A stretch of 63,946 nt of DNA, counting the filler, from Stramenopiles sp. TOSAG23-6 (lineage: Eukaryota), in NCBI GenBank assembly GCA_900128565.1. It is 33 parts of 33 records of this genome, joined end to end, with 100 filler letters (N's around TTAATTAATTAA, not from the genome) between each part and the next. Parts side by side here need not be neighbours in the genome. Positions count along the whole stretch, not along the records: positions 29,186 to 30,544 come from LT639181.1; 32 more parts are not named here. One strand, written 5' to 3'. Below, in pieces: positions 524 through 59,316 of the stretch. The notes below the pieces were generated by a model, which was not told the origin of the DNA, did no database searches, and worked only from the letters and a program-made list of their open reading frames with translations. Position 1 is the stretch's first letter. Every line of letters begins with the position of its first letter. A program made the position numbers and the translations under genes.

Positions 524-2588
524 ATATACATAATACTATATTTGAAACAAAACATGTATACAAAAAACATTTTAAAAAATACACACTACAAAAAATGAAA
601 TAAATGATAAATTTCAAAAAAAAAACTTAAATTTGTTAGGTACAAAATTTCGTACGAAAACCAAAAAAAAAAAAAATAAAACATACATCAATTAATTGAA
701 TTTTTTCTGGATTATGCTCTCGATAAAAAAAAAGAAGTTTTTTTTTGAAATTAAACAAATTTAACGAAGTATTTGAAATTGAATTCTTCACTGCAAAATT
801 TTCAAATTGTTTTTCTGAATTTTCTGAATTTTCAAATTGTTTTTCTGAATTTTCTAAATTTTCTGATTTTACGAATTGTGCTTCTGAATTTTTTGAATTT
901 TCAGAATTTTCAGAATTTTCAAAATTTTTTTCATCATTTTCAAAATTTTCAAAATTTTTTCCATCATTTTTATAAAATTCATAATTTTTAGTAAACCCAA
1001 CCAATAGAACTTTTTTTATTGGAACAGGTAATTGAAAACGTTCTCCTATATGCCATGAATATAGTGCACTCCATTTTGTCTTTGTACCCGGTACCCAACA
1101 TGTCACTTCTCCAAAGTTATCAACTGATTGCAAAATAAATGTTTTTTTTTTTTTTTGGTTTTCGTAAAAATTTTTTTTTTTTTGGTTTTCGTAAAAAAAT
1201 TTTTTTTGTGAAAAATTACAAAAAACTGGAAGCCAACATAACGCATGTATTGTTTTTGTGTGATCAACATTAAAAGGCGTTGCAGTAAATATCCCAAATG
1301 TTTTGGGTGGACCGGGTACACCCTGAGAGAGTACACTTGACAAATTCGAAATTGATTTTTTTTTCGTAGAAAATTCCGTACCTAATTCCGTACCTAAACT
1401 ACGAAAAGTACATACACAATTACCTTGACTCAAAAACAGTGCAGTGACGTCATCACTACCATTTTTATTTTTCCATTTCGCTTGGATTTTTATTGTACGA
1501 TGATGATGTGGAGTTAGGGTTAGGGTTTCATTAGGGTTAGGGTTATAAATACTCGAAAATGCTAGAGACAATATCTTTGGAATTACCCAATGTATTTTCG
1601 TAACTCCTTTATTTGTATTTGTAGTAGGGTTAGGGTTACCTGAAAAAAAGTTTGGAAATGTAAATGAAATCATAATCAGAGCATTTTTTGTATCATTAGG
1701 GTTAGGGCTTTTTGTTGTATTTTTTGTATCATTAGGGTTAGGGCTTTTTGTAGTATTTTTTGTGTCCTGTACACAAAAAAAAGGCGAACAAACTAAATTA
1801 ACAAAAGATAAATATTGACTTTTTTTTTCATAATGGTTATAATCATTTAATTTTCCAGACACCCAAAATTGATTCATATAATATAAATTGTGAAAAAAAA
1901 AATTCTAAAAAAAAAAAAATGTTTAGGTACAAAATTTTGTATGAAATTTTTTTTTACGTACAATTAGGGTTAGGGTTAAAAAATAAATGAAATTCTTTTT
2001 ATAACATACATGGAGATTTCTTTGGCAAATCACGAAATATATGAATATCTGGTAAACTACCTAAAGTATACAATTGTGTATATACTTCAGATTTACCTGA
2101 TAATTGTCTGAACACCAAATATCGTGAAAAAATATTTTCAAAAAAAAAAAATGTTAGGTACAAAATTTACTACAAAAAAAAAAAAAAAAAAAAAATTGAT
2201 AAAACATTTTTGATACTTAAAATGTACAATTCAATTAATTCAATGGTGCCATTTGGTGTATAGTCTATTCGCAATAACCAAAACCTATTTACAACTGAAG
2301 TTAACATTGTTTTATTAAGTGGTTTATTAGGGTTAGGGTTATCAATAGACGCAGCACTAGGGTTAGGGTTATCAATAGACGCAGCACTAGGGTTAGGGTT
2401 TTGTGGAGGGGACACAAATTTTTTAAATGACATGGTGGCAAAAAACGATTTGGATAGTATGTTTTTAGATGTCTTATTACGCCGAATCATATGATCCCCT
2501 GCAATACATGTATAATAAGAAAATATTTGTAAACGTTTGAAATGAGTCAAGTACAAAATTTTCTAGAAAAAAAAATTGAAAAAAACAG

Positions 2589-2734: not shown

Positions 2735-4019
2735 GTAAAAATTTCATACAAAAAAAAAATTGATATTGAAATGATGAAAAACATACATTGTACACTTGTG
2801 CATTCTGGAATTTTTATCCAAACCAATTTTTGTGAAGATAAAGTTTCATTTTGTAACATATCTTTTGAAAAAATATTTCAAAAAAAAATCGTTAGGTACA
2901 AAATTTCGTACGAAACCNAAAAAAAAANCATTNCGAATTTGAAAAAACATAAAACATACACATAATGCATCTTAAATGTTGTATTCATTTTATCTTCTAA
3001 CCAAAAATGACACGAAAAATCAACAGATACTGTATATAACAAATTTAATAAACCCATGTATTGTGAAAAAGAATCGATTTGTTTTTTGTAAAAAAAATGT
3101 TAGGTACGAAATTTTCAAAAAAAAAAAAAATATAAAAATTTTGTATGAAAATTTTGTATGAAAATTTTGTATGAAAATTTTGTATGAAAACATATATACA
3201 AGATGGTGATTCTGGGCGCCAAGCAAAATCAATGAGAGGAAGGACGTGATATAATAAACTTAAATCCCAATTACATGAAATGTTCCATACCATTATTTCG
3301 TGTTGTCCTCGAAATGTTGCGGCTAAAAAACGATTATCGGGAGAAAACGAGAAGGATGTGCCTGCACTGTGAAAAAAAAAAAAATCGTTAGGTATGAAAT
3401 TTCGTATGAAAAAAATATAAAAAAANAAAANAAAAAAAAAAAACGTTAGGTACGAAATTTCGTATGAAAAAAATTAAAAAAAAAAAAACATACACTCTCG
3501 TTCCACAGGGGTGGAGATTTTCTTTACACATGAAAAAGAACATTTGTTATCCACTTTTTCAAGCATATTTGAACGATTTCGTTCCCATATTGACAAATTT
3601 GATAAGGAGGCTGATGCTATAAATTGTCCAGATTTTGAAGAAGATAAAGCATATGATGAATAAATTGTATCGTCTGAAGATATAATCAAAGGTCCAATCC
3701 AGTGCACATTTGGATTCCAACTAGACACTGAATTTAATTCGTTATTGTCATTGGGAGAAGCTGTCCATTGACATAGATGTATTAATATGTTTCCTAGTGA
3801 TGCAGATAAGAAATTTCCGTTGGACTGCCAATGAACAGCTGATATATCATCTGAATGATCTAAAAACCGTGCTAGTGGATATGGTGAATCACCCACACAA
3901 TGGAAAACAGTAATAATGGATCCTTCCGCAGAAAGTGCAAGGTGCAAACCACGGACGTACATATAATCCCATAGAGCAGGCACACATTTATTGGTAGCGG
4001 GGATATGTGGGACTTCCAT
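97..4019 (-). CDS. Multi-exon WD40-repeat protein, 3' end off the contig (possibly Rav1/DMXL-like)
   Basis: WD-like segments (AVHWQSNGNFLSAS, FIASASLSNLSIWE, FSFSPDNRFLA) join in frame after removing family introns 3362-3493, 2117-2227 and 1883-2009; some exon boundaries are unresolved. Confidence 0.55.
484..521. repeat. (TA)n microsatellite
   Basis: Uninterrupted TA dinucleotide run. Confidence 0.95.
2117..2227 (-). other. Family intron, GT...TT
   Basis: GAA TT|GTACAT...TTTTCACGATATTT|G GTG restores an open frame (IELIEL-VFRQ); branch motif present. Confidence 0.6.
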
Positions 4020-7715: not shown

Positions 7716-7988
7716 CTTACGGTATAGACTTGTCTGAGTCGTGATGAAGAGTTTGTTGTTGTTTTCGCGAAAAAATCCGCGGTTTGGCCGTTTGTGTGTT
7801 TTGGCCGAAATCAAATCAATCAAATCAAAGTGGTCAAAGAAAGCTACAGAGGATAAAATAAATACTAAATATTGTACTATTTTTGTCATGTTGAGGTCTA
7901 GTTAGTTGATATCAACATCTTCACAAATTGCTGACAATTCATTACGCATTTAGTTTAGTTTTTGTATAATTTTTACCCGTAAACGTAT

Positions 7989-9277
7989 ATGAAATATGTT
8001 ACTGAAGCGTCGTCTCCATCCGTTGGAGGATTAGTTGTGTTGAGTGCAATTTCTCAATCTATTCGAACGTTTCTTGGCCCATGTGACTCCATAAAATGTG
8101 TTCCTGTTTCTAGTGATATACCTGAATTTGTTTGTGACCCTCTCAGTGTGATTGACAGTTTTGATTTGAAGAACCCAGTGGCAACATTGCTTCGTGACGC
8201 TTGCTTCGGTCTTTATAATCATGAAGGTTTAGGAGTCACGACATTTGTAACACTGGTGGGTTTATTGAGTGATGAGGCTATGCGGCTGTTACACAGTGGT
8301 ACATCAAAGGAACATATTTGTACAATATTTAAATCTGCCGCCGTTATCTGCAATGACGTTTGTCATCGTTCAAAAATACCCTTGGACCATTTGTTCCCAA
8401 ACAAATCTAGTTCTACACGAAATCACGTTACACTTGAAGACGATTATGATATTATTGACGATACATCATGGTTCTTTGAAGAATGTAGTAGTAGCAGTAG
8501 TGAAGAAGAAGATAAGAAAGCATCTTCTACTAATGAACAATGTATAATAAATACTATTGGTCGTTCTTTGCAACATACAATCTCCCCAAATAACTCAAAT
8601 AACTCAAATACATTAAATAACCCTAACCCTAGTACCTCAAAAACAGTAAAAACAATAAAAACAATAAAAACAGTAAACACTAAAAATACATCAAACATTA
8701 AAAATATGGAATTAGACGTTGCCATGACTCTAGCAGTCGAGGCGACACGTATTTTACTCAATATAACAAAGACAAGTACTATTGGAGATATTATGGATGT
8801 TTTATTTTTTTTCAATTTTTTATCTATATTTTTTTTTTTCGTACGAAATTTTGTACCTAACAAAAAAAAAGTTTTTTTTTTTGAAATATTTTTTCAAAAT
8901 ATATTGGTCATGATATAAATTGTAAACGAATTAGGGTTAGGAAAATAATTGGCTCTTCGTCTGTTGGACTGAATAAGGTAGGGTTAGGGTTAGGATCTTC
9001 AGTTCATGCTGAAATATTATTACCAATACATCCAACAATGTATGTTTTTTTTTTATTTTTAAATTCGAATTTAGTTTTGTTTTTCGTACGAAATTTTGTA
9101 CCTAACAAATTTTCAAATTATTTTTTTTGAAATATTTTTCTAAAATACATATCAAATACTATTAAACTTGGATTATCAAAGGCAAATACGAATGCTTTAT
9201 ACACTATTGTAGTGAATGGTGAATGTTTGTATGATAAAGGAATCCGAAGTGGTGCAGGAATATATGCAAATGAAAAT
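7989..9277 (+). CDS. Chaperonin-like protein (BBS12/CCT-like), 5' part
   Basis: IRTFLGP and NPVATLLRDAC...GLGVTTFVTL match the group II chaperonin N-terminus with a degenerate GDGTT; continues across introns at about 8795-8904 and 9040-9150. Confidence 0.65.
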
Positions 9278-9279
9278 GT

Positions 9280-9334
<55 letters not shown>

Positions 9335-9335
9335 G

Positions 9336-9370
<35 letters not shown>

Positions 9371-9386
9371 GTGATGAAAAACAAAA

Positions 9387-9487
9387 NNNNNNNNNNNNNN
9401 NNNNNNNNNNNNNNNNNNNNNNNNNNNNNNTTAATTAATTAANNNNNNNNNNNNNNNNNNNNNNNNNNNNNNNNNNNNNNNNNNNNA
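9387..9487. other. Artificial contig spacer N-TTAATTAATTAA-N (first of 32)
   Basis: The same six-frame-stop 12-mer sits inside N padding at 9431, 18908, 20369 and onward to 62542; flanking sequences are unrelated. Confidence 0.98.
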
Positions 9488-9542
9488 TTTTGTACCTAAC
9501 AAATTTAAGTTTTTTTTTTTGAAATATTTTTCCAAAATACAT

Positions 9543-12317
9543 CTGAAGCTTCTTCATGGAGTGGACAAGAGGCTGTGATGGAATCGATTAGTGCTCTTGA
9601 AGTGAAAATGTACGTTGTTTCATCATACATTTCAATTTTATTTTTATTCATACGAAATTTTATTCCTAACATAAAAAAAATCGAATTTGACATATTGTCC
9701 CAAAATACATTGTCGATGAAAAGCAATCGGCAGAAAATTCTAACAGGAATATATATATGGATATTATTCCAGAGGAAAGTGAATTGGTATCAATAAAACC
9801 TGCCAAAATCGCAAAAGTTATAGATTTCAATCTGGAAGATGGTTATGTACGTTTTCATTCTGAATTTCATTTTTTTTTGATACAAAATTTTGTACCTAAT
9901 GAATTTTTTTTGGATGTTTGTTTTCATGATGAATTTCATTTTTTTTTTTTCAAAACATTCCATACCTAACAATGTTTCTTCTTATTATTATTTTTTTCAC
10001 AAGACATGGTGGTCCGGGTGTAAATACAGACATTTTCGAAGCAATTGTCCCCGCTGCTGCCGCTGATGCAGCTGAGGAATATCACGCAAAACTTACAATT
10101 TTACTAGCAGAAAGCAGAGGTGAAGCAAATCTTCAGAGTGATCTTGCTAGAGCTCAACTTGCTTCTCTTGGTCTCCCTGCTGCAATTGAGGCTTCAAGTA
10201 CCTCCCCTGGATTACCCACAAAGACTTGGGAAAGTGTTTTTGCCTTACAATCAAAAGGCGGCCCACAAAATCTACTCCAGCAACTCAATAATGGTACGAA
10301 AAAACGTCAAAATGTCATTGGAATGCTTGACCAGGTTGATAAACTACTCGATATCGAAGCAAAGGAGGATGAATGTGCTCGTAATGAGCATGGGAAGTTA
10401 TGGCAACGTGAAAATTCATCACAAATTTCTACTCAGTATAAAGTTCAAATACAGAAGTATCGCAAATCAATAATCAAAGCAGCTTCCTCAGATGATATCA
10501 TTGCATCGAAGCTACGTCATGCAGATAGTGGTGGCGAAGGTGAAGGTTGGATGCAAATTATGTATAATAAATCTAAATTAGATTCTCTTCTACCAGGTAG
10601 TCTCGACGCAGACCAGAACTCATTTGCTGAGAAGCAAGCTCTTCAGAAGAGTTTGATTGAACTAGGCAATTTATTAAATTCTCGTGATGATTTACTTGAA
10701 AAAATGGAATCAATGGGAAAGAAAGAAGCTGCAAATATTGTCGTTACTCTTACGCGAGATAAAGAAGGTGTACGAGAGGATGGTACTGGCAAATTTAATA
10801 TTGCAGATAAAGAAGGTTTAATTATAAGGGAATTATCAAAATTTGATGAAATTTTGAAACAGATCAAAGATTCTTGTACAAGCCAAATTTCTCTTCTTTC
10901 TCAGATTTCAGAATCGAATGAACGATTTTTAAAAGCCCGTACCGCAACTGAATCAACTATACAAAGACAACGTGTTTTACAAAGTATTCAACAAGCATTG
11001 GTGTTATTTGCTGAAATAGAGGGAAACCTAAAAGAAGGAAATACATTCTACACTAACTTAGTTAACTCGACAACACAATTGCTTTCCTCTGTGTCGGATT
11101 TTTGTTCAACTCGTACATCCGAAATGAATCATTTGATTGATCAAATTGCTGAAAAGAAGAAATCAGATGCCGCTGCCTTTTACTCTGCAAAAGCTGAACA
11201 TGACAGAATGATGAAAGCTGAAGAACAAAAGCAACAACAAAAACAACAATTATCTAATACTTCACATGTGATTCAAAATCCCAGAAATCCGAGAGAAGCG
11301 TATGCAACTTTATGTAGCCCACCACCACCACCGGTGAATCAGCATAATTTTCAGAGTGGACGAGGTACATATGTGGGTCAAACTCAGTACAACAATGGTG
11401 TGTTGCCTATGAATGTTCCAGCTGCATCGGCTCCAAGAGCACCGGCTCCCAGATATAGTCATAGTCAAAATCCATCAATTGCCCCTAGCAATGTAGCAAG
11501 CCCTGCTCGACAACCTCCACCCAGTTATAATACCGTGAAACCTTTGCCTCAACAGCGTATAGCCAACAATACTCCACCTGCACCTCAATACCATGAATTT
11601 CGTCAATCGCCAACTGTTGGTCAAGCATATCAGCCCCATGTGCCTACGTCTGCTAGCAATATAGCAAGCCCTGCTCGACAACCTCCACCCAGTTATAATG
11701 CCGTGAAACCTTTGCCTCAACCGCGTACAGCCAATAATACCCCCCCTGCACCTCAATACCATGAATTTAATCAATCGCCACGTATTCGCCAGGCAACACA
11801 CACACCTTCTGGGCCTACAACACAACACCAAAATAGGCCACCTCCTGTATATCGCCCTGTAGCACCTACTGGGTTGCCAACTTATGCAGAAGCTCGACCT
11901 GTTCCAAAATCAAAACCAACATATTCTCTACATCAACCTGTAGTGAATGCCCATGCTGTTGGCACACCACTGCCTAATCATTCTTTACATCAACCTGTAG
12001 TGAGCGCCCATGCTGTTGGCACACCACCGCCTAATCAGACGAGTGTGTCAGCTCGCGTGTCTGCTGTACCTGCATATCAGACAGTAATAGCAAAACCCTT
12101 AACTAATACTGCCTCACCTGGTTATACTGCTTCAAACGTTCAATCAAATGTCGTCGTACATGCAAAGCCTATTGATGCTCCTGTACCTTCACAGTATTCT
12201 AGTCAGCTTCAATCCTTGAAACAAATGGGATTTACGAATGATACAGCTAATTGTAGAGCATTAGAGAAAGCAAAAGGAAATGTAGATGAAGCAATCGAGA
12301 TTCTTTTATCTGGTTGA
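9543..12317 (+). CDS. ALIX/Bro1-family protein (end of Bro1 domain, V domain, Pro-rich region, C-terminal UBA)
   Basis: Spliced AENSNRNIYMDIIP...DIFEAIVP, LASLGLPAAIEA, NLKEGNTFYTNL and UBA LKQMGFTNDTANCRALEKAKGNVDEAIE. Confidence 0.9.
9610..9710 (+). other. Family intron, GT...AT
   Basis: AAA AT|GTACGT...CCCAAAATACAT|T GTC restores EVKI-VDEK and the Bro1 NxxIY motif. Confidence 0.85.
9847..10007 (+). other. Family intron, GT...AT, with doubled internal modules
   Basis: GGT TAT|GTACGT...TTCACAAGACAT|GGT GGT is in frame; the AG 4 nt upstream is out of frame. Confidence 0.8.
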
Positions 12318-12360
12318 GTAAATAATAACAATAAAAATGAAATAAAGGAATTTATACCTT

Positions 12361-15300
12361 CTAAAATGTACCATTTCTCCCAGCTTCCATTTTACTACCA
12401 AGGCGGCTTTCTCTGGACGTATATGGTCTCATATAACGAGCACTCCCCGTTCTAGATTTTAACTGTAATCTTGCGTGGGATGTCATCGGTCTTCTCGATC
12501 TAGTTTTTATTACTACCGGAATGTATGGCTCTTCAATGACTTGCTTCGAGAGGCGATTCTGTTGTCGTTTGCATGTTGAACCATTCTTTTTACGTTGATC
12601 TTTACGATATCCTCGTTTTTTCATTTGGTGTTTCTTTCTTAGCTTTTTGTCCAGATATTCAACTTCTGATGCAATTGCATCGCGAGCAGTCTGCAATGCA
12701 TTGCGATGATTTTCTAACTCTTGCACAAAACTCATGGAATTTACTGTAGAATGCTTACTTGTTTGCGATATTTCCTCTTCCATTTGATCTATTTTCTTTT
12801 TGAATTCCCGACTTCGCCTGCTGGGACAACGCTTTCCATTTTTTATGCGTCGTTTTAAACTATTAGAATCCACTGGTGTTTTGGACAGAAATGCTTTATT
12901 CTTTCGACGATTATACAGTAATGCCTTTCTTTTTACCATTCTGGTTTTACCCATTTTAATATATTTGCTTGGCTTCTTTTGTCTAGTTTTTTTTTTACGA
13001 TGGATCAATATACTTTTCTCTTTTAGAAGTTGCTCAGCAGTGATTTTTCTCCTATTTTCATCAGCTGCAAACAGCTTCGTTCCTTCTTCCCCAAGGACAC
13101 ATGCAATAAAGTCATGGCGAGATACTAAACCATTATCATTTTCCAACGACCTATACAATCTTTCCATGTTTTTATCATTATATATTTCCGCTTTTCTCAT
13201 CGCAGTCTTGAAATCGTCCATTGTCAACCAATCACCCTTTGCATTTGTTTTGTGAAGGTAAACACGAAAAGGACCCCAATCGCCATCCTTGCGACCATCG
13301 ACATGATGATCTCCTCTTGGTATATTCTTGCTTACACGCCTCCGAAGGGCTTCAAGAGCTGTTTCCTCATCTACTAATAATTTCTTAATATACTCTTTTT
13401 TACTTCTACGTTCTTTCGATTTCTCCTCCAATTTTGCTGTATACCACGAAGAACTTTCTGGCATTGATTGAAAGATTTCATCACCGAAAACACTCTTAAT
13501 AAATTCTGTAAAGTTTATGTATCCGCGGCAGTCAGAGTCGTTTTGTGCAAATAGCTGGTGCATTACAACAGGTGTCAATAAAACTCCACAGCTACGCATT
13601 GCCTTATTGAATTGATCAAAATCTACATCATTTGGACTAGGTAAAGTGGAAATGCCGTGAGGACCAAAATGTCCAAATTTGTTAACAGAACGAATACGGT
13701 TATTTATGTCGGCGTGTACATCATCTTCATCATCTTCTTCAGGAAAACTCTCTGATGGTGGTTGCAAAGATTTATCAATAAATAATTTAAAAGCATATGT
13801 CATGCCTGGTGCGCCACCCTGAGTTTGCCGAATAATCTTTTCACGCAAAATATCTAACAACCCTTCATTGGGCTCTTCAGGTGGCATGTCCCATAAGTGA
13901 GTAGCTTTTGCGCTCGCAATTTTCGCAGCAGCCTTTGCAGCAGCCTCTCTTTCTTCTTCGGCTCGCGCCTCTGCCTCTGCTTCTGCGAGAAGTGCAAGCT
14001 GGTGGTTTCTATCTTGGATGGCGTTCTCTATTCCTCTCTGCTTTTTGATTCGTTCTAAAGCACGTTGCCGCCTTTGTTCTGCAAGCCAGGATTCATCATC
14101 TTCAAGTTCCGAAATGTCTTTTGGTGGAAATATTACACGCATGAATTCAGAATAGTTGATGGAGCCATCATTATTTACATCTAGTTTTCGAAAAACAATC
14201 TCCGCAAGTTCCGGAGATAAAGGTATACCACAACGATGAAGACCTGCACGAAAATGGGCAAAATCAAGATTAGCTTCCTGGTTGGTCCCATTTAAACGCG
14301 CCCTTCTACAAAGATCTCTAAATACCCGTTGCATACCTTCAGCGCCATCTCTACAACGACCACCTTGTATCAGCCGCCTCAATTTGGCAAGTGCTCCCTC
14401 GACTGAAACAATTGAACCACCTGCTCGTTTTCCCGCCCTTTGCCGCATTCTATCACGTATTGCTTTCCCTCCGTAATTGCTTGTTAACGGGTATAGTTTA
14501 CTAATAAACGTAGAATAATCTATGGCATTGGTATTTTTTCTATTTTGTTCTTTAAAAAGCTTTGATACTATAATAGGATTTACTAAACCAATACTCGCCA
14601 TAACACATCTGAAAGTTGCTTCTGTCACCCGTGTAACACCTAATTTGTTCTGTTCACTTCCTTTTAGTTTAACTCTCGCATTGATAAATCTACGGAACAC
14701 TAATGAGAGGAAATCAGATGGTGGAATTATCTTAGGAGAACGGTTGACTGCAGCTGAAATTTTACTTTTTACCATTTCTATTGGATCTATTGATACTGTG
14801 TGCTTGAGTGCCGCTTGCTTTGATTTTCTTGAAGTACTCGATGACGCCGATTCTTTTGTTACTATATTAGTAAATACAGGCCGACACTTTTTGTAGGCTT
14901 TTAACATCGACGGGTTTAATAAATTCGGATGTTTTGATAAAACAAAATCGCCATATACACCAATGAGAAACTCATCGTGGCTTATAGTGTAGCTATTATC
15001 TATATCAAAAGTGTTGAAAAGTTCTTGCAACCTCATCGCTTTGACATTAATACCACAAAATCGCAGTGCTGCTTTGAAATGAGCAAAGTCAAGCTCTCCA
15101 TCAGAACCTCTAAGCTTGCAAAATTTCTTGAAACTCTTGCTTAATGATACGGGTCCACCACTGGCTTGTAACTGAATTTTACTTCGAGTTTTTCCGAATG
15201 CACTTTTGTTCACGGAAGGATCTTCGACTCCTGCTTCTAACGCAAAGGCACTTCTCTGCGCTTTGCGTTTTCTCCGTTCGTCCATTTTTTTCTTTTCTTG

Positions 15301-15747
15301 TTCATACGCACTAAGCTCTACTACTTCTATAACTGGTGCATTCCAAATGGCATCCAAGACAGGAAGGTATTCAATAGAAGAGAAATATTTGATGCTTCCA
15401 TCTGTTTTTGTATCAAAGCCAAGAAAGAGAGTTTTCAACCACTTTGTTTGTTTCACTCCAACTTGTTTCATTATTTGCTTAAACTCATCAAACGTAACTG
15501 TCTTACCCTTTGTCCGTCTCTGAAAAAGCCCAAGAATATGTTTCCGGCCTTTTGAACCACAACAGCCAAGTACAGCTTCGCGTATTTCTGGAAGAAGGTT
15601 TTCACAATCTCTTCTAACTTTCTCTCGAAGGTCGTTCATCGCAAGAGTAGCGTCAGCCTTTTCATCTTTTGCTTTCGCTGCTGCTATATTCAAACCAGCA
15701 TCAGAAGATCTAAATTCCTTCTGGTTATTTCGAGTTACGCCATTCAT
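12361..15747 (-). CDS. Multi-EF-hand protein
   Basis: 1128-aa intronless ORF with loops DIDNSYTISHDEF, DVNNDGSINYSEF and DSDCRGYINFTEF. Confidence 0.85.
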   Translation of the reverse strand: MNGVTRNNQKEFRSSDAGLNIAAAKAKDEKADATLAMNDLREKVRRDCENLLPEIREAVLGCCGSKGRKHILGLFQRRTKGKTVTFDEFKQIMKQVGVKQTKWLKTLFLGFDTKTDGSIKYFSSIEYLPVLDAIWNAPVIEVVELSAYEQEKKKMDERRKRKAQRSAFALEAGVEDPSVNKSAFGKTRSKIQLQASGGPVSLSKSFKKFCKLRGSDGELDFAHFKAALRFCGINVKAMRLQELFNTFDIDNSYTISHDEFLIGVYGDFVLSKHPNLLNPSMLKAYKKCRPVFTNIVTKESASSSTSRKSKQAALKHTVSIDPIEMVKSKISAAVNRSPKIIPPSDFLSLVFRRFINARVKLKGSEQNKLGVTRVTEATFRCVMASIGLVNPIIVSKLFKEQNRKNTNAIDYSTFISKLYPLTSNYGGKAIRDRMRQRAGKRAGGSIVSVEGALAKLRRLIQGGRCRDGAEGMQRVFRDLCRRARLNGTNQEANLDFAHFRAGLHRCGIPLSPELAEIVFRKLDVNNDGSINYSEFMRVIFPPKDISELEDDESWLAEQRRQRALERIKKQRGIENAIQDRNHQLALLAEAEAEARAEEEREAAAKAAAKIASAKATHLWDMPPEEPNEGLLDILREKIIRQTQGGAPGMTYAFKLFIDKSLQPPSESFPEEDDEDDVHADINNRIRSVNKFGHFGPHGISTLPSPNDVDFDQFNKAMRSCGVLLTPVVMHQLFAQNDSDCRGYINFTEFIKSVFGDEIFQSMPESSSWYTAKLEEKSKERRSKKEYIKKLLVDEETALEALRRRVSKNIPRGDHHVDGRKDGDWGPFRVYLHKTNAKGDWLTMDDFKTAMRKAEIYNDKNMERLYRSLENDNGLVSRHDFIACVLGEEGTKLFAADENRRKITAEQLLKEKSILIHRKKKTRQKKPSKYIKMGKTRMVKRKALLYNRRKNKAFLSKTPVDSNSLKRRIKNGKRCPSRRSREFKKKIDQMEEEISQTSKHSTVNSMSFVQELENHRNALQTARDAIASEVEYLDKKLRKKHQMKKRGYRKDQRKKNGSTCKRQQNRLSKQVIEEPYIPVVIKTRSRRPMTSHARLQLKSRTGSARYMRPYTSRESRLGSKMEAGRNGTF

Positions 15748-16085
15748 ATTGCTATTTTACTGAATGTGGAGAATCTACTATCTGAATGGATCTTTTTGAT
15801 GATTCTCTCTGATCTTCGCATAGGGTATGATACAGTATTCTTATTAAAAAATGTAACTGTTGTTGACATCACATGATACCCGGTTCCGACAAAAAACCGT
15901 CGGTTGAATAATTTTGAAATTTGAAGAAGATCCAAGATCCTTGATCCTTAAAAGATCTCATCTAGATCTTGCATACAACTTCATATCGATCCAAAATCTA
16001 TACAGAACCTTGAAGAGTAATCAAGTAATAAAACATCATCCTACTGTCTTCAAGATACTGACGTAATTGTTATTTTGTTTGCATA

Positions 16086-18808
16086 ATGGGGAGACTCCAT
16101 GCTGCATTTTTGTACTCAGTTCTTGTTGTTCTTGTCAAGAGTGTAAAAGCTTGGGGAATCAACTCTGAGCAGGTTCCTTTCTCCGTCGAGGATTATCAAG
16201 TCCCGATTAGATTGCGTAGTGGTTTCAATGAAAGAAATGAATACAACAAGTCACTCCCAATGATGGAAGGAGCCCCAAGATTCACTCATATACAATTGGG
16301 AGAAGATGGAACAAAAAGAGGGCCCAGCCATCACCAGAAACAAAAAGGCTTGCGAAATGATTCTCAAACAGCCTACACAGTAATTCCATTATCCGAGTCA
16401 AATATGAGCAATGTTTCACCTAATACAACAAAAGAGATTGTAAAACAGTCGACGGAAGGTTTTGTTAACCCGGAAATAATGGAGGATCCTATTAATTCAA
16501 GCAAATCATCGCAGGAAGACATTGTGGAACCCAAGATTGTAAAGAGTTCAAATGAGTCGCAGGAAGACACTATGGAACCCAAGATTGTAAAGAGATCAAA
16601 NGAGTCGCAGGAAGACACTGTGGAATCAAATCAGTCGCAGGAAGTCATTGTGAAACCCGAAAAAATAAAGAAGGAAGAGAACGATACTCAATCGGAAATT
16701 CCAGTAAGCTCAAAACATGCAAAAAGATCTTCTAAAATGATTTTTGTATCATCACCAGATACGTCTGAGACACCAACAATATCTAATTTCAACGAAACGT
16801 CAAAATTTTCAAAAAGTATAGAAAAACTTGTACAGGCTTCAAGAGAAACACTTTCTCAAGTACATTCAACTTTGTCGCAATCTTCTACAGGAACAGAAAA
16901 AGAAGCATCAGCAAACAAAGTACCTTCAGAAAGTACACAAGAAGAAGCAGAGCAAGAAACACTGACTGACGAATCACCTATCGAATCATCTAGAGCACCT
17001 AAAGATTCACCTGAAGAAGCACCCCAAGAAGTACCGAAAGAAACATCTAATGAAGCGCCTAAAGCACCTAAAAAGTCATCTAAAGAAGCNCCCCAAGAAG
17101 TGCCGGAAGAAACAGCTAATGAAGCGCCTAGAGAAGCATTAAGCACCCCAAATGAGAAAGACTGCACTAATGGTGTATGTGAGTTTACACCAGAGATGGT
17201 AGATAAATATGTGAAGCCTACTGTAGTGACAATTCGAAGAACTAATGGAGAACGTCTTTGGGGCGACACTGTCGGTGGTCTAACAGCAACAGGCTTTATT
17301 GTAGACAAGAAAAGGGGAATTATTTGCACAAATCGTCATGTTGGAGGAACTGGATCACCTTCTACACAATTCAATATTTTAACTATTGCTGGTGATTACC
17401 TGAGAGCAAATCTACTTTATTATGACCCAGTTGTTGATATCTCTTTTCTGAAAGTGGACAAACCATTTTCAAAAGACGTAGAGCAAGTGAGATGGGGTAC
17501 AGCTGCTGTCGGTGATAAAGTTCTTTTAGTTGGAAACAATGAGGGCCAAGAGTTCACTACAAAAAAAGGTGTGATTATCAACGAAGCTAAAATGGACATG
17601 ACTGGAACATACGTAAATTGGCAGACTTCTTTTGATCGAACTGGTGGTTCTAGCGGAAGTCCAGTGTTCAATCAAAAGTACGAAGTCGTTGCGATTCATG
17701 GGGCGGGTTCCGATACTACAAGTTTTGAGTTTCCAGCCATGTATATTTTGCGAGTTCTAAAACAGCTTAAGCAACCTGGAGGGGCAAGTGCCATAAAACG
17801 TGGAAGAACCGGTTTATTTTTGACCCTATTACCATTAGGCAAAGCGCAAGCATATCTTCATACAACTCCAGATCAAATGGAACGCTTGAAAACAGCTTCA
17901 AACGCATATAATTGGGGTACAAGTACATCTTGTCTCTCTGTAATGGCAGTTTCTCCATTAACACCGGCTAGTAAAGTCATAAAAGCTGGTGATATAATCT
18001 ACAAAATCAATGACCAGGTTATTGGTCTTGATATTGGATTGTTTGATGAAATTGTCGATAAGGCAATGTTTTCCAAAACACAATCAGTTACGATTACTGT
18101 GTTTCGTCTAGGCAAGGAGTTGACAGTGTCTATAAAAGTTGTGAATGTAGACTTGGGGAAGCCAACTCAATACTTATCAATTGATCACGCCTTATTTCAG
18201 GAAGTAACAGATGATATGAGAGAAGAATATTATATCACTGATGATATTGGTGTTTGGACGCCATGGGCACAAGAAGGCACAAGTTTTGAGAGTCTCGCCA
18301 GCGCAGGAGGTAAAACAGGCTACCTTCGCTTACTTGTCAGGTATATCAATAATGAACCTATTCATTGTTTAGACGATCTTCGGCAGATAATGGAGAAGCT
18401 CATAAGAGCACACGAGGGAAAATATCCAATGCAAATTCAAGCCTTACTCACCATGGTAGATTTTAATGGTGTTAAAAGCATGATGGATATTGCAGTTCCA
18501 TTTTCCATTAATTTAAATACCTCATCTGACTACCAAGCTTGGAGGTATAACCCAAAGTCTTTAACTTGGGTTCAGGATCAACAAGCTCCGAAAACATGTA
18601 AAATGAAAACCATACCCAAGAAAACTAATGGTGATTCTTCTGGTGGCAATCACGAGGTTGCAGATACATTTCCATCGATGGAGAAAGTCAGATCTGTTGT
18701 CCACCATATGAATGTCTATAATAAAAATTTTAAAAATGCTGTTTCAGAGCTTTTCGATGAAAATTCAAATATGGAGCAACAAGAGGAACAAGAAAGAAAT
18801 TCACAAAT

Positions 18809-18863
<55 letters not shown>
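16086..18863 (+). CDS. HtrA/Nma111-like serine protease with PDZ domain and predicted signal peptide; 3' truncated
   Basis: TGFIVDKKRGIICTNRHV (His), YYDPVVDISF (Asp), GGSSGSPV (Ser); PDZ-like IKAGDIIYKIN; hydrophobic N-terminus. Confidence 0.85.
18810..18863 (+). repeat. (CAA)n poly-Gln tract
   Basis: Pure CAA run up to the contig end. Confidence 0.95.
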
Positions 18864-19049: not shown

Positions 19050-20133
19050 ATATTTGCTTTAAGAATAATTGAATGGGAAAAAGCATCAATGTTCTGTTTT
19101 GAACCCAATTGATCTTTTAATTTTTTTGTAATGATTAATCCAATATGTAAAATTGTAACTCTTGAAGGATCATTCGAATAACAGTTTTGAAATGTAGTGA
19201 TACTCAATTTTCTTTTTGACTGGTGATGATCTGTTTCAATGGAATGAACATTTTATATGAAAAAATATGTCACATTTTATTTTTTATACATTTTTGTTAG
19301 GTACAAAATTTCATATGAAACATTAAATTTGAAATTCATAATGAAAACGTACTTTTGTTATATGAAGTTTATTCGACTTTTGAAGTGACCGAAAATCATA
19401 TAACTGTCCTTGCCAAGTAAAAATACCATCCAATATGGCTCCTGTACTTTCGATACTTTGGTTAGGGTTAGGGTTTTCATGAATAAAATCAGGTAATAGC
19501 ATTAATGTATTGTGAATTTTTTCTTTTTTTTTTGAAAAATTTGTTAGGTACAAAATTTCGTATGAAAAAAATAAATTCGAAATTTAAAAGCAATAATAAT
19601 GAAAACGTACATAAAGCTTTGTCTTTGTTGTTTTGCTTGTTCTGAATTGATTTTTTTACCGATGATATTGTTTTTGATGTTGTTGATTTTGTTGTGTAAT
19701 AAGGTACATCCCAAAAAATATCATTTTTATCATTTTTATCATTTTTATCATTTTCAGTAGAATGTTTTGTAAATAAAGAATGATGGTGTGTATCTTTTTG
19801 TTTATGTAATATAAAATTGACATTTTCATCATCGAGTTCTAACTGTAAATGAAGTATTTCTGCTGCTTTAACTTCCTTATGAGATAATCTCCGATGATGT
19901 CTTTTATTACCTTGAGTATACAATATATTATGTGGTTCATTAACTGGTGTTGTACCCAATTCATTCGATGTAAGTATTCGTAAATTAAATGTATTTTGAT
20001 ACGTCTGAGTATTTTCAGGTTCGGAAAAACTTTCGAGATGAATTTTTTGTAGTACATCTTTTTGTACCAAAGAGTAACACTGTATGATTTGAATACACAA
20101 CAGAATGAAAAGGAATTTCTGTGTCATTGTCAT
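19050..20133 (-). CDS. Secreted protein, 5' exons, function unknown
   Basis: Signal-peptide-like FLFILLCIQIIQC; frame stays open across GT-AT introns 19505-19610 and 19250-19352. Confidence 0.6.
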
Positions 20134-24898: not shown

Positions 24899-26166
24899 GT
24901 TCATTCATACTGTGAGAGCCAACCGATCGGTTTAATTCACCAGATCGCATAAGTGAATGAACTTCAGTTGAATTATGGACAAGAGTTTTTTTAAGTCCAG
25001 AAACACAATTTTTGCCATTTGCTGTTTTACGAATCTCCAAATTTTCAAATTTTTCACCTTTAGATCTGATTTTTAATAAATCATGGATTTGTTCATTATA
25101 AATTTCAAACATACTCATTTTAATAGTATATTTTATATCTGCTTCACGATTCGTCGATACCTCAAAAAGACGATCAATGTATTTTGGAAAAATATTTGAA
25201 AAAAAAATCGTTAGGTACAAATTTTCGTACGAAAAAATAAATTCGAAATTAAAAAAAAATAAAACATACATGGATCTATAATTTACACCAGGATCATCAG
25301 GAGGCCCTTGCATCGTATATGTTTTCCCTGATCCTGTTTGTCCATATGCAAAAATACAAACATTATGTATTTTGGAAAAATATTTCAAAATTTTCTAAAA
25401 AAAAAAATTCGTTAGGTACAAATTTTTTTTTTTCCGTAAAAAAAAAAAAAAAAATAAAACATACATAACCATCCATCACAGAAGTAATAAGTGGAGAAAC
25501 ATCCTCAAATACTTGTTTTTGTGAACTTTCTCCACTGAAAACACGATCAAACTCAAATCTTCGAACATCTTGAATAATATTCGTTTTATTCGTTTTTGTT
25601 TTATCAATATTTAAATGAACAGAAATATCATGAGGAGATGGAAAATATATACAATTTTTAGTAAATGTTGCATCATCGCGATTTTTTTCACTGTCTACAA
25701 TTGGACGAACTCTACAAAACACTCGAATGGATGTATTTTGGAAAAATATTTCAAAAAAAATCTTTAAAAATTTGTTAGGTACAAAATTTTTTTACCAAAA
25801 AAAAAAAAAAAAGATAAAAAATTGAAAAAAAAAAAACATACATCCTTGTAATTCAATCAATTTGTTATGTATTTTTCTTCTACGCATAGATTCGTCTGTA
25901 TAGAGTGAAACTGCATCGGTTACTTGTTTTTGCATTAACATTTTTGTTTCATTTACTGCTATTACTTGATTTCGTAAGCATTCTTCTGCTTTTTTAGACA
26001 CTGCAACGTCCAAAGCTTTTGCAGCCATAGATGTAGTATGAAAAATTTAAAATTAAAAAAAAATCGTTAGGTACGAAATTTCGTATGAAAAAAAAATTCG
26101 ATTTTTTTGTAAAAAAAAAAAATACAACATACATGTCATCTTGAAGAACCCAGAAAGCTTTCCACC
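24899..26166 (-). CDS. Kinesin-14 (C-terminal motor) fragment, five exons
   Basis: Spliced [42 protein letters not shown] and FEIYNEQIHDLL. Confidence 0.95.
25177..25269 (-). other. Family intron, GT...AT
   Basis: TCC AT|GTATGT...CCAAAATACAT|T GAT gives GVNYRSIDRLF; no AG in the 3' part of the intron. Confidence 0.9.
25365..25464 (-). other. Family intron, GT...AT
   Basis: GGT TAT|GTATGT...CCAAAATACAT|AAT GTT exactly restores the conserved [13 protein letters not shown]. Confidence 0.92.
25731..25841 (-). other. Family intron, GT...AT
   Basis: GGA T|GTATGT...CCAAAATACAT|CC ATT restores [14 protein letters not shown]. Confidence 0.9.
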
Positions 26167-26831: not shown

Positions 26832-27626
26832 ATAAATAAACGCTCTTTTCCTATTGAGTAGCTACCAAACAATACCAAAGTATCTAAGTTGGTAGTACCT
26901 ACACTAAATGCACGTAATTCTCGTAAAGTATCTGAAATAGCTATTCTTTGTGTCGGAAAGCAGTATGTATTTTGGAAAAATATTTCACAAAAAAAATCGT
27001 TAGGACGTATTTCATCACAATATCTAAAATCTCCTGTATGCAGAACGATACGACCATCATCAATACGAAACAATATGATGGCACTACCCGGACAATGATT
27101 TGCATCAATAAATAAAATTTCACATCGAGCACCAGGAATTCTGTGCCACGTATTCATTGATAAACGAATAAGATATTTTGGTGGTACTCTTAATTTTTTT
27201 TCTACCAAAGCCGCAGTTATAGCAGTACAATAAATACGCCCAGCATCAAATTTTGAGTCAAGACCTCCATAATGATCAGAATGAAAATGAGTGAGAATGT
27301 CTTGTGAAAAAATATTCCAAAATACAAATTATTTAGTATGAAAAAAAATAAACTTACAATTTGAAAAACGTAAATATGCAAAAAAAATCCTTAGGTACAA
27401 AATTTCGTAAGAAAAAAAAAATATAAATTCGAAATTGAAATAGAAAAACGTACAGATAAAAACGGCTCAATTTTGGGGATGAATAACGAAATGCATCAAC
27501 AACAAATGGAGTACCTGATATTTTCTTATAGAAAGGACATTTTTCAGGAGCAATTTTGGAAGACCAACTTGAAAAACTATTTCGACTATTTTTTATACTT
27601 TTTGATTGTTTTCTTTGAGTAGTACG
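26832..27626 (-). CDS. SNM1/PSO2-like DNA cross-link repair metallo-beta-lactamase nuclease fragment
   Basis: FVVDAFRY, LTHFHSDHYGGL, DANHCPGS, LHTGDFR, GSYSIGKERL; GT-AT intron 27297-27453; collapsed join near 27004. Confidence 0.9.
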
Positions 27627-29085: not shown

Positions 29086-29283
29086 NNNNNNNNNNNNNNN
29101 NNNNNNNNNNNNNNNNNNNNNNNNNNNNNTTAATTAATTAANNNNNNNNNNNNNNNNNNNNNNNNNNNNNNNNNNNNNNNNNNNNTTTTTTTTTTTTTTT
29201 TTTTTTTTTTAAATCGTTAGGTACAAAATTTCGTATGAAAAAAAAATTACTAAAAAAAAAAAATTAATAATGAAAAACCTATA

Positions 29284-30149
29284 TAGGATAGAGTTGCACA
29301 CAATACCCATTGCGCGTGCCCACGAAATACTGCTATTTCTTCACCAGTAGTAACATCCCACAACCGAGCGGTATTATCATTTGATGCTGAACAAATTAGA
29401 GTCCCATCAAATTGTATAAAAAAATATTTAAAAAAAAAATTGAAATTTGTTAGGTACAAAATTACCTACGAAATATTTTTTTTAAGCTAGGGTTAGGGCT
29501 TGTACTGTTTGAATTTTAAAAGTGATTGTTGAAAAAATACTTGACTGAAACAGCAAGAATTGATTGGTTTTGAATGTCCTCTTAAAACACGAGTTGACAT
29601 CCCTCCAGATGATTGCATTTTCCCTGTTTTAGGTCTCTTTGATTTTCTTGAATGTTTTAGTCTTGCCAAATATGACATTTTGGAATCTCGATTAGATGGG
29701 GGGGTTTTCATGTCAGTTGTTTGAGAAGATATTCTTTTCATTTCTGTTGATGTTGTAATACACGATTTCTCTTTTTTTGTTTCCTTTTCATCCTCTTTAT
29801 CTTTATCGTTTACTTTATGTAATTTACATATACGTTCTCGGGACGGAAGCTTCCATAAACGAAGTGTCGCGTCTGCACTAGCAGAGACACAGAGTCCATT
29901 GATCGAAATGTCACAATCAAGAACTTTTCCTTCGTGCCCTTGTAGTTCAAGTTTAGGAATTCCAAGTTTTTGTAAAGTTTCTAGTTGTGCTTTGGCTACA
30001 GCTACAGCTTTCTTCCGGATTGCGATTTCTCGTTTTGCTTGGATGACTGCGGCGGATTGCTTTTTAGGGGGTGGAGTATAGTTAATATCTCCAAAATATT
30101 TTGCTTGTTCCGCTTTACTAAGAAAACGCTGTGCGTTTCTATGTGACAT
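29284..30149 (-). CDS. WD40-repeat protein, 5' part
   Basis: GHEGKVLDC...[11 protein letters not shown] and [31 protein letters not shown]. Confidence 0.85.
29409..29540 (-). other. Family intron, probably GT...TT
   Basis: AGT CAA|GTATTT...TTTTATACAATTT|GAT GGG restores the WD40 consensus FSxDG. Confidence 0.6.
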
Positions 30150-30644
30150 TGTACTATTGTCTTGGTGTACTTTTACTTTTAGTTGTTCATATTATACAGT
30201 AGTGTGTAATTGTGTACGACGACAATAGTGATTTGAGATTCTTTTTCAATAATTCAATGAATAATATTATATTCAATGAATAATATTATTGAAGTACAAA
30301 TTTTAAGATTGGCGATTTCTTTTATTGAAAGAGATTGAAAGGATTGAAAGTTGAAACAAATCAAATCAAATCGAAATCAAATCACAAATAAATCGGAAAT
30401 CGCCGACATCAAAAAAAATACTTAATATTTTTTATTTCTTTTTTGTACACAATATTCTTTCATAAAAAGCTTTTTATTTGATTTTTCTATTTTTTATTAT
30501 GTATCGACAACCTCCATAGCGTACATTCATTTATTTTGTCCCTANNNNNNNNNNNNNNNNNNNNNNNNNNNNNNNNNNNNNNNNNNNNTTAATTAATTAA
30601 NNNNNNNNNNNNNNNNNNNNNNNNNNNNNNNNNNNNNNNNNNNN

Positions 30645-35066: not shown

Positions 35067-36241
<1,175 letters not shown>

Positions 36242-50900: not shown

Positions 50901-51479
50901 NNNNNNNNNNNNNNNNNNNNNNNNNNNNNNNNNNNNNNNNNNNNTTAATTAATTAANNNNNNNNNNNNNNNNNNNNNNNNNNNNNNNNNNNNNNNNNNNN
51001 AAATATCACTATTTTTGCTGCGATGCTTCATTGTATTGAATTATGCGTGTTGGTCATACTCGAGGAATAATATTAAATAGTCAATTATATAAGAAACCCT
51101 AATTAATACGTAATATTCTATATTTCTAAATATATTGTCTTCTCTCTCTCTCTCAAGACTTGAGTTGAGACTTCGACTCGAGCGGAAGAACAGAAGAAGT
51201 TGCGAAAACCCTAACCCTAGCTAAAACCCTAACCCTAGCTAAACCCTAATGATTTTTCGTTTTTAGTCATTTTTCAATTCAGTTACATAATCATTAATCA
51301 AGGAAGGACACCTCAAGATAGTCTCTTTTTTTACAAACGATACTACTTTTTACTGGCTAATATTACGACACTTTACACAGCTATTGTATTCATTACCATA
51401 AAATATAAAGTCATATTGAATCAATTACTGTAATTATTTAAGTTACACTTCATCGTCCGACGACAAATTCGAGCAAACA

Positions 51480-52327: not shown

Positions 52328-52517
52328 GTATGTTTTATTTTTTTTTTTTTNNNNNNNNNNNNNNNNNNNNNNNNNNNNNNNNNNNNNNNNNNNNTTAATT
52401 AATTAANNNNNNNNNNNNNNNNNNNNNNNNNNNNNNNNNNNNNNNNNNNNTTCGAAATTTGTTAGGTACAAAATTTCGTACGAAAAAATAAATTTGAAAT
52501 TCATAGTGAAAACGTAC

Positions 52518-53400: not shown

Positions 53401-53967
53401 AATTTCTGTGTATCTTAATCGAAAAACACAACAATTATTCAGACAATTGAGGTGGAACACACGAAGTAGCTAGGGCTAGCAGTGTCGGTGCCACAGTTGA
53501 TGGACTGAAACATCAAAAAAAATAATCAAATTTTTTTTTTGAAAATTTGAAACTAAAATTGAGAAATTCAAATACAGAATATAAAACAAACAATATTTTC
53601 ATATTTAATGATTCATTTCTCAACATTTAGAATAATTGGATTACCATAGATGGTTTGATTGTAGGCTAGAAAATAATATAAAAACGAAATTCCAAAGATT
53701 TGAATTGAATATGAAAACTTGAAAAGCATATTTATAGTTACTCATGAATTCTACAGCCATACTAATAACAATAATAACAATTAATTGGTTTAAGCTGGTT
53801 NNNNNNNNNNNNNNNNNNNNNNNNNNNNNNNNNNNNNNNNNNNNTTAATTAATTAANNNNNNNNNNNNNNNNNNNNNNNNNNNNNNNNNNNNNNNNNNNN
53901 TTCGAAATTTGTTAGGTACAAAATTTCGTACGAAAAAATAAATTTGAAATTCATAGTGAAAACGTAC

Positions 53968-58402: not shown

Positions 58403-59316
58403 GGAGCATCTTGTCCAGTAGGCATTGGTGTAAGTTGTAGTGCCGACCGTCAAGCTTGGGGGAAGATCACTGAAGAGGGTGTGTTTATTGAAGAATTAGA
58501 ACGTGACCCTGCTAAATACTTGCCTGATATTGATGAAAAAACTTTACTTGGTGGTGGTGATGTTCACGAGGTGAATTTAAATGATGGCATGGATAAAGTA
58601 TTATTGAAACTAAATGAATTACCAGTCAAATCTAGAGTATCTCTCACAGGCACGTTAGTAGTTGCTAGAGATATTGCACATGCTAAACTTTTGGAAAGAT
58701 TAAATAAGGATGGAGAGTTGCCACAGTATATGTACGCTTTCATTATAATTTATTTTTTTCCACTAGACTTATTTTTTCATACCAAAATTTGTACCTAATA
58801 AATTCTACATTTTTTTTTTTCACAATATAGGCGTGACCATCCTGTTTATTATGCAGGCCCTGCGAAAACTCCTGAAGGAATGGCATCTGGATCATTTGGT
58901 CCAACAACTGCAGGACGCATGGATAGTTATGTTGATGCATTCCAAGCAGCTGGCGGTAGTAAAATTATGCTTGCAAAAGGAAATCGAAGTAGCCAAGTGA
59001 CTCAATCATGTTTGTTCTCTCATTATGATTTGTTTTTGAAATATTTTTTTTCATTGAAATTTTTGTACCTAACAAAAATATCATTTTTTTTGAAATATTT
59101 TTTCACAACTCATGTAAAAAGCATGGCGGATTTTATTTAGGATCTATTGGAGGACCTGCGGCAGTTTTGGCTATGAATTGTATTAAAAAAGTCGAAGTAT
59201 TGGAATATGAAGAATTAGGTATGGAGGCTGTTTGGAAGATCGAAGTAGAGAATTTTCCTGCCTTTGTCGTGGTTGACAATAAAGGAAATGATTTTTTTTC
59301 TAAATGGCAAGCGTAA
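58403..59316 (+). CDS. Class I (Fe-S) fumarate hydratase, C-terminal exons
   Basis: [50 protein letters not shown]...[22 protein letters not shown]. Confidence 0.95.
58732..58830 (+). other. Family intron, canonical GT...AG
   Basis: TAT AT|GTACGC...CACAATATAG|G CGT gives PQYMRDHP. Confidence 0.85.
59010..59113 (+). other. Family intron, GT...AT
   Basis: TCA T|GTTTGT...TTCACAACTCAT|GT AAA gives VTQSCKKHGG; the intron contains no AG at all. Confidence 0.92.

Follow-up and report, generated by a model that had tools for sequence, protein, structure and literature searches.

Most introns in the 63,946-nucleotide (nt) stretch of Stramenopiles sp. TOSAG23-6 DNA analyzed here (the window; GenBank assembly GCA_900128565.1) begin with GT and end with AT rather than AG, and the place at which they end may be set by an extended block at their 3′ side. 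Judging from their sequences, all 35 introns that we delimited are copies of a single stereotyped family, spliceosomal in appearance. To the extent that protein homology can tell, the non-AG ends are real, and this homology gives good support to the conclusion that acceptors in this family are not chosen by scanning for AG. One intron carries particular weight in what follows. This focal intron, at 29409-29540 in a WD40 gene, ends in TT, and the initial annotation of this DNA had used it to argue that the 3′ site is selected by distance or structure rather than by a search for the first AG. We consider it just about probable that the extended 3′ block places the 3′ cut, with position and terminal dinucleotide acting jointly.

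The 35 introns are non-redundant and have both ends on one contig. Repeated contigs were counted once, and introns with one end off the contig (e.g., those at 9543, 20522, 23155, 36241, 39436, 42377, 47947, and 58403) are excluded from every count given here. Donors were picked by motif, in three cases (3195, 35330, and 8799) after the frames had been inspected; brute-force enumeration of donors and acceptors was too noisy for use. For two introns, a flanking open reading frame (ORF) is short, with 11 codons upstream of 26031-26132 and 7 codons downstream of 49729-49819. All 35 introns, along with the partial copies, carry the same blocks, such that near-identical sequences of 91-279 nt interrupt unrelated genes.

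Four parts make up the family architecture: the 5′ sequence GTAYGTTTT, frequently continued by CATCATTTCAAT; an internal AAATTTTGTACCTAAC, which looks like a branch site and is best regarded as a putative one; a T-run; and the 3′ block GAAATATTTTTYC-AMAATAC-AT. The three conserved blocks are set apart by low-complexity spacers of varying length. The 3′ block is rigid and spans 22 nt, in the form GAAATATTTTT-YC-AMAATAC-AT, and its last base is the last base of the intron. The box GAAATATTTTT, when one mismatch at most is allowed, occurs 58 times against 15.2 expected occurrences, and the largest number seen in any shuffle was 27. It starts at position -22 in 21 of the 35 introns, at -21 in three, and at -23 in another three. 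A CCTAA[CG] core followed by a T-run is present in 33 introns. The spacer between CCTAAC and the box ranges from 0 to 71 nt.

At the 5′ end, 34 introns begin with GT and one with AT, and the position counts (of 35) are G34 at +1, T35 at +2, A31 at +3, G30 at +5, and T32 at +6. The 3′ ends are AT in 25 introns, AG in 6, and TT in 4. Conservation within the tail is also pronounced, with A30 at -7, A25 at -6, T27 at -5, and A28 at -4, whereas position -2 is A in 31 introns and position -1 is T or G in every one. Further upstream, 31 introns have a pyrimidine at -10 followed by A at -9, compared with a background YA frequency of 14% inside these introns. The initial annotation had described exactly this arrangement, in which nine bases starting with A follow a pyrimidine at -10 in most introns, and each of the nine-base tails that it quoted lies at the end of a frame-consistent intron joining long open frames. 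Of the 33 introns that have the predicted +9 site, 31 have it in the same frame as their best donor (binomial P ~4e-13, p=1/3). Of the 35 upstream exons, 24 end in AT, and 23 of the downstream exons begin with G.

The strongest evidence for the position of a non-AG end comes from the focal intron. Its excision, with exactly 29409-29540 removed, restores the reading frame and creates an FSQ-DG junction, as had been proposed. At this junction, the upstream exon ends at position 21 of the Pfam WD40 model and the downstream exon starts at position 22. The orthologue P0283, which comes from a representative library and is labelled only as a EukProt gene, is colinear from the N-terminus, and its residues 155 and 156 adjoin at the junction with no gap. 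Three acceptors are in frame with the focal GT donor, ending in ..ATACAA, ..CAATTT (the site originally chosen), and ..TTTGAT. On a custom WD40 profile built from 32 repeats of seven proteins (29 of the 32 with 27-residue spacing), ..CAATTT scores 40.5 bits versus 31.4 and 26.9 for its two in-frame neighbors. By the Pfam model, those neighbors either add one residue or drop model position 22, and we rejected both. Because Pfam, the custom profile, and the orthologue agree on the site, we infer that exactly 132 nt are removed from this gene. Moving the intron by +1 gives a TA..TG reading with an identical mRNA, and it is possible to move both borders left by 1-3 nt at the price of non-GT donors and one changed residue.

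The focal tail, ATACAATTT, agrees with the consensus tail at only four of nine positions, and the end of the intron still lies 22 nt from the start of the box. Thus, at the site fixed by Pfam, the profile, and P0283, the tail has drifted while the position of the cut has been kept. Both the focal intron and 2117-2227 contain an AT at +7, and in neither is it the in-frame site. By its sequence, the focal segment is one member of the stereotyped family whose terminal nine bases have drifted.

Other junctions were examined by scanning single exons against Pfam and comparing the model end of one exon with the model start of the next. Two kinesin introns and one fumarase intron, all of the GT..AT class, match their models continuously, to the residue, across the junction (Table 1). 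The TT ends that had been predicted to restore the frame at 2117-2227 and 38973-39145 do so as at the focal site, with GT donors and long open frames joined, and for these two introns the frame is the sole guide to the end. In 38973-39145, an AG 5 nt upstream of the end is out of frame. Both in this intron and in the one at 20522, which is partly off its contig, the TT end differs from ..ACAT by one base at -2 and is located at the same position. The junction of 43958-44049 cannot be fixed from Tra1 relatives, as the protein is variable in that region. The four Tra1 relatives P0001-P0004 (of 44035-45096; 47-48% identity) end directly after ..LLPG, and their read-through peptides start with M-F-S, M-S-R, M-C-L, or T-R-R, which would fit donors of the type GTATGTTTTCA or GTACG in the organisms they come from as well.

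The canonical rule that the first suitable AG is used fails in this family, where AG ends only 6 of the 35 introns. Nearer AGs had been reported to be skipped, and we find that an AG between the CCTAA[CGA] core and the acceptor is bypassed in 14 of the 34 introns with that core, and that four non-AG introns have an AG within their last nine bases. Beyond the ends of the 29 non-AG introns, the next exonic AG either lies out of frame or does not occur in the following 60 nt in 21 cases. Scanning for AT fares no better: from the CCTAAC core onward, a scan would meet on average 5.8 internal ATs (range 3-14) before the AT at which the intron ends. Rules invoking the first AT, the first YAT, or the first AG were all rejected, because several ATs and AGs are passed over before the used end. 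Another candidate rule, a cut 2 nt after TAC such as target-site duplication might produce, suits most copies and two of the TT cases. Applied to the focal intron, it would put the end at ..ATACAA and leave one extra residue in the protein, which is disfavored by Pfam, the custom profile, and the orthologue.

Since these introns contain far too many AUs for scanning to pick out the right one, a positional cue appears to be needed. The non-AG ends close a rigid 22-base block, and therefore the cut site is probably found by position and not by a search for AG. The combination of pyrimidine at -10 and A at -9 is constant in 31 of 35 introns while the distance from CCTAAC to the acceptor floats between 27 and 95 nt. 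In the mechanism we favor, recognition of the extended 22-nt 3′ block would place the 3′ cut. A U-run followed by Y-A would be the anchor, with cleavage occurring approximately 9 nt downstream. The last two bases would be relaxed, such that A or, less often, U is accepted at -2, and U or, less often, G at -1. When the spacer differs in length, the nearest AU or AG within ~7-10 nt would be taken. The extended block would define a narrow stretch inside which the cut follows AU or AG and, in exceptional cases, UU.

Several observations weigh against this mechanism or against its positional component. The nine bases are themselves conserved, which means that a long sequence motif accounts for the data equally well. 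Likewise, a single family shares box, spacer, and end as one rigid unit, and the constant spacing may therefore be inherited. The conservation of A at -2 (31/35) and of T or G at -1 (35/35) implies that the terminal bases are read. Four of the 35 introns leave the +9 position yet keep AT or AG; in one of these, 8799-8905, an AT is present at +9 and is out of frame. Two such departures, at 46843 and 35431, had been listed as exceptions in the initial annotation, and both are real; 8799-8905 and 49729-49819 are additional ones. For the TT intron 2117-2227, an ordinary in-frame AG is available 9 nt downstream. When reads from RNA-labelled seawater runs were mapped on 1-2917, no contig was found across any exon junction. 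The mapping yielded fragments of exons, together with pile-ups over the intron block and a telomere-like stretch, and the joints among them are cross-matches between intron copies. Isolated Ns within contigs point to an assembly of low grade, and given these Ns and the homopolymers, single-base errors could make or mask exceptions. Finally, the case for a position that is independent of sequence depends chiefly on one intron.

Because introns with deviant spacers still end at AU or AG, a strict ruler does not fit, and position and dinucleotide seem to operate together. A ruler is plausible and unproven, and at best it would be a soft one coupled with a preference for AU or AG. The proposal that the 3′ site is chosen by distance thus survives in part: the Pfam junctions show that neither the first AG nor the first AT is used, and measurement of distance is not separated from conservation of the block. 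Structure as the selector finds no such backing. Among 12 introns that were folded, z ranged from -3.4 to +0.4, and only one reached z <= -2. The minimum free energy fold of the focal intron contains a 12-bp stem between the box and its inverted copy, with a z of only -1.1, and has no end-to-end pairing; a 4-bp GUAU/AUAC closing stem forms in consensus copies only. By eye, we noticed no covariation between the 5′ end and the tail, although no formal test was made.

The alternative that survives best is one in which nothing is measured and the spacing is only inherited. The introns would be recent copies of an introner-like mobile element ending in ..CAMAATACAT, spread by transposition or reverse splicing, and the spliceosome would read a local YAT or YAG followed by G, with the TT copies being poorly spliced or defective. 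We hold this to be a tentative possibility. It accommodates the presence of one intron family across unrelated genes, as well as the retention of AT or AG at changed spacing in the exceptions. Compound introns, which have two 5′- or branch-like blocks or an inverted internal copy, occur at 412-686, 3362-3493, 9847-10007, 27297-27453, 38973-39145, and 58251-58402 and resemble insertions of the same element, either nested or in tandem; 412-686, 3362-3493, 9847-10007, and 38973-39145 in particular speak for this alternative. The intron ends are short inverted repeats (GTAT..ATAC), and upstream exon and intron share their final two bases in 22 of 35 cases versus 17.7 by shuffling (P=0.012), including TT with TT twice. 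However, the direct repeat is missing in the other 13 introns. The terminal inversion amounts to only 4-6 nt (GTAT/ATAC, or ATGTAT/ATACAT), and because AT is its own complement, the direct and inverted repeat signals are confounded. The tail shows 51-63 substitutions versus 3-4 length variants by a rough estimate, and insertions and deletions are not clearly below neutral drift.

Other evidence is harder to reconcile with mere inheritance. The focal intron is without the local end sequence, and the site that fits both Pfam and the orthologue is still at the end of the block. Furthermore, a local YAT cannot be unique within these introns. Conservation is confined to blocks separated by variable spacers (for instance, that between CCTAAC and the box), which suggests selected signals over uniform recent copies.

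In each of two RNA-labelled seawater runs, approximately 500 contigs lie on the intron block (589-686 and 2843-2917), with summed depths of ~1,600 and ~11,000, and several of these contigs continue into unrelated downstream sequence. Because hundreds of contigs lie on the block, the intron family appears to be very numerous, and the libraries contain either unspliced RNA or DNA. A metagenome scan of 241 million records with a 17-nt block motif returned 64 loci, none of which has the surrounding block, and so all 64 are chance matches.

A bolder proposal can also be entertained, although we think it unlikely when all of its parts are taken jointly. Here, the whole intron complement of the organism would have shifted to a GT..AU class, with the 3′ cut made by a molecular ruler from the U-run/YCA element, which could be a branch site 9 nt upstream of the cut. 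All introns would share a transformed, minor-spliceosome-like mode of acceptor choice, in which co-evolved small nuclear RNAs (snRNAs) or U2AF-type factors read the 22-nt block, and the GT..AU family may have spread as an introner.

We give much less credence to the idea that the borders have been misread, being either AT..AC with both cuts 2 nt upstream or ordinary AG acceptors paired with other donors. It is true that in 19 of 35 introns AT precedes the donor and also closes the intron, such that a 2-nt slide reads AT..AC, that for 8 of the 29 non-AG introns an AG no more than 60 nt downstream is in frame, and that a focal alternative, GTTTCAG..TTGTTCAG, is likewise in frame. However, 10 of the 35 introns permit no left slide at all, including the focal intron and four that end in AT (19250-19352, 43958-44049, and 45515-45628 among them), and GT..AT is therefore the sole reading that fits throughout. 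In addition, use of a downstream AG would remove conserved kinesin residues where the Pfam model is unbroken across GT..AT, and the focal GT-AG alternative would remove model positions demanded by Pfam and by the orthologue. Least credible of all is removal without a spliceosome, either by DNA excision like that of ciliate internal eliminated sequences or by another enzyme cutting RNA via paired ends: the short inverted ends, the direct repeats, and the hundreds of contigs in RNA-labelled runs that keep the element (from libraries that may contain DNA) would suit it, and it is opposed by spliceosomal-type signals (GTAYGT, a CTAAC-type motif, a U-run, and CAG or TAG at the same position in six copies), by long ORFs under the standard code, unlike most ciliates, and by weak predicted structures.

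Table 1. Coordinates of the focal intron, its parts and flanking exons, and other individual introns in the window
Feature	Position	Strand	Basis or remarks
Focal intron, GT..TT	29409..29540	-	132 nt; phase 0; open codons 217 upstream, 52 downstream
5′ splice-site block GTATTTTTT	29532..29540	-	Family consensus GTAYGTTTT; donor begins at 29540
Branch-site-like block AATTTTGTACCTAAC	29449..29463	-	CCTAA[CG]-type core
3′ box TAAATATTTTT	29420..29430	-	Consensus GAAATATTTTT; begins at -22
TT (pyrimidine at -10), then nine-base tail ATACAATTT (29409-29417) with TT end	29409..29419	-	Sequence
Inverted box copy within focal intron	29470..29480	+	Pairs with 3′ box in predicted fold
Telomere-like CCCTAACCCTA within focal intron	29488..29498	-	Motif count
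Upstream WD40-gene exon, open-frame part, ends ..CCFSQ	29541..30191	-	Pfam WD40 and orthologue alignment
Downstream exon, begins DGTLICSAS.. (first bases GATGGG)	29283..29408	-	3′ limit suggested by donor-like ATAGGTTTTTCAT at 29282
Second TT intron, GTACATTTT..ACGATATTT	2117..2227	-	Open codons 111 upstream, 38 downstream; upstream exon also ends TT
Third TT intron, GTATGGTTT..ACAGTACTT	38973..39145	-	Open codons 44 upstream, 348 downstream; upstream exon ends TT
Kinesin intron, GT..AT, consensus copy	25365..25464	-	Pfam Kinesin model positions 74 and 75 adjoin across junction
Kinesin intron, GT..AT	25177..25269	-	Pfam Kinesin model position 105, three residues, position 109
Fumarase intron, GT..AT, tail ACAACTCAT	59010..59113	+	Pfam Fumerase_C position 141, split codon, position 143
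Exception: acceptor AT 7 nt past T-run/C anchor	46843..46981	-	Sole site that keeps a chain of four consecutive introns in frame
Exception: AG acceptor 8 nt past nearest pyrimidine	35431..35619	-	Frame
Exception: +9 AT out of frame with GT donor	8799..8905	+	AT at +7 or TT at +10 would be in frame, as would a TG..AT reading
Exception: no anchor	49729..49819		7 downstream codons
Intron starting ATATGTTTT (A at +1) and ending ..ACAT, hence AT..AT	3056..3195	-	Sequence

The window consists of 33 contigs ordered by length and chained by N44-TTAATTAATTAA-N44 linkers (e.g., at 9387-9486 and 29086-29185), with pieces at 1-9386 and 9487-18863 and the remainder at ~1,350 nt each; genes on different pieces are not linked. 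One contig is repeated exactly (52451-53800 equals 53901-55250), and another, 58251-59599, is present three times, with one copy differing by one base. The G+C content is ~31% overall, and exons are richer in G+C. Long ORFs are open under the standard code, and those recognized are ordinary eukaryotic genes encoding kinesin, class I fumarase, Tra1, CCT, WD40, HECT, DHHC, FYVE, and protein kinase proteins. The closest relatives of the fumarase are from marine invertebrates and chromerids, at 68-71% identity. Five seawater runs were located; when words from one 7-kb contig were sampled, 23-27% of them were present in two RNA-labelled runs. An Rfam search of the window gave no families.

The window is also rich in simple sequence. 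Very long A and T homopolymers and A/T low-complexity tracts occur in introns and intergenic regions (e.g., 2560-2740, 9290-9380, and 35500-35850). The telomere-like motif CCCTAACCCTA is present 25 times, versus 0 expected, for example at 1515-1542, 2328-2398, 8979-8989, 29488-29498, 46244-46281, and 51209-51237. Some copies are located in introns; many others fall within long ORFs, and their translation there would be N-P-N-P or G-L-G-L.

An AG at the end of the intron is among the most constant signals in eukaryotic genes, and few lineages break this rule on a large scale. Like canonical U2-type introns, the members of the family described here start with GT and a U1/U6-compatible extension and have a putative CTAAC-type branch motif upstream of a T-run. 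Unlike U2-type introns, most of them do not have AG as the last two bases. In Giardia and Trichomonas, the branch site is fused with the acceptor in one 3′ motif that contains CTAAC, and introns end in AG. The fixed short distance between the acceptor and a conserved upstream motif is similar in the window, whereas the non-AG ends and the location of CTAAC, far upstream at a varying distance, are different.

Introners and transposon-derived introns are described in the accessible parts of reports on Micromonas, Aureococcus, Amoebophrya, and fungi (PMC7789003, PMC9860276, PMC11282704). Those of Amoebophrya, as far as the accessible text goes, have inverted and direct repeats at their borders, no common dinucleotides, and long hairpins (PMC7789003). 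The family in the window resembles introners in that many near-identical introns of ~100 nt are present in unrelated genes of a marine organism, and in that short inverted ends and apparent direct repeats of 2-5 nt over the boundaries make the borders ambiguous. Most described introners carry or create GT-AG, unlike this family, which has one dominant GT..AT class and weak predicted structure. Non-AG acceptors are also known from hemistasiid diplonemids and Perkinsela, but in G+C-rich or trans-spliced contexts (PMC12621601, PMC5601477). Descriptions of diplonemid, Paramoeba, and Amoebophrya introns do not fit the window family. Our literature search, in which most subscription journals were not covered, retrieved no description of a dominant GT..AT class with such a block.

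A closer parallel for the choice of acceptor is offered by U12-type introns. The accessible portion of one account states that the distance from the branch point sequence to the 3′ splice site matters in these introns, with an optimum of 11-13 nt, and that non-canonical termini are functional (PMC3584512). Tolerant termini, with GT-AT and AT-AT among them, extend to the expanded and transformed set of Physarum polycephalum, again according to the parts of the sources that are available (bioRxiv 10.1101/2020.10.12.336362, PMC3584512). The window introns similarly place the acceptor at a short and narrow distance from an upstream element and have extended conserved 5′ and internal motifs. They also tolerate G or A at +1 (with one ATATGTTTT donor, at 3195), which is otherwise a hallmark of minor-type introns. 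Differences are nevertheless evident. The 5′ sequence is GTAYGTTTT rather than RTATCCTT, with G and T instead of CC at +5 and +6. CCTAAC lies 27-95 nt from the acceptor, in contrast to ~10-20 nt for the U12 motif TTCCTTRAC, and there is a strong U-run, which U12-type introns lack. The box TTTTTCC-A at -15 to -9 is only loosely similar to the U12 branch motif.

The other close parallel is found in the Fritillariidae. In the accessible part of one account, 3′AT is the commonest intron end (44% in Fritillaria pellucida and 34% in Fritillaria borealis), introns have a final YAY triplet and often YAY before the 5′ site, a U-rich tract is retained, the spliceosome is U2-type, and divergent U2AF paralogues bind the non-canonical 3′ ends (PMC13326754). 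The major F. borealis classes begin with AG (AG/AC and AG/AT) and are highly diverse, as far as that text extends (PMC13326754). Likewise, 24 of the 35 window introns end in YAT, and 13 of the 35 upstream exons do so. Unlike those of Fritillaria, however, the window introns start with GT in 34 of 35 cases and have three long conserved blocks common to all; box-plus-9 spacing and long common blocks go unmentioned in the accessible part of the Fritillaria account (PMC13326754).

By analogy, then, the mechanism we favor resembles both the choice of acceptors in U12-type introns and the 3′AT introns of Fritillaria. What the window presents is known non-canonical splicing in a variant form, and its interest comes chiefly from its uniformity. 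Gene-prediction software that requires AG will produce wrong models for almost all genes of this organism. Because the family is so uniform, it would allow a direct test of how a spliceosome finds an acceptor other than AG. It is a cleaner case than the non-AG introns already known, having one dominant GT..AT class and long, fixed flanking signals.

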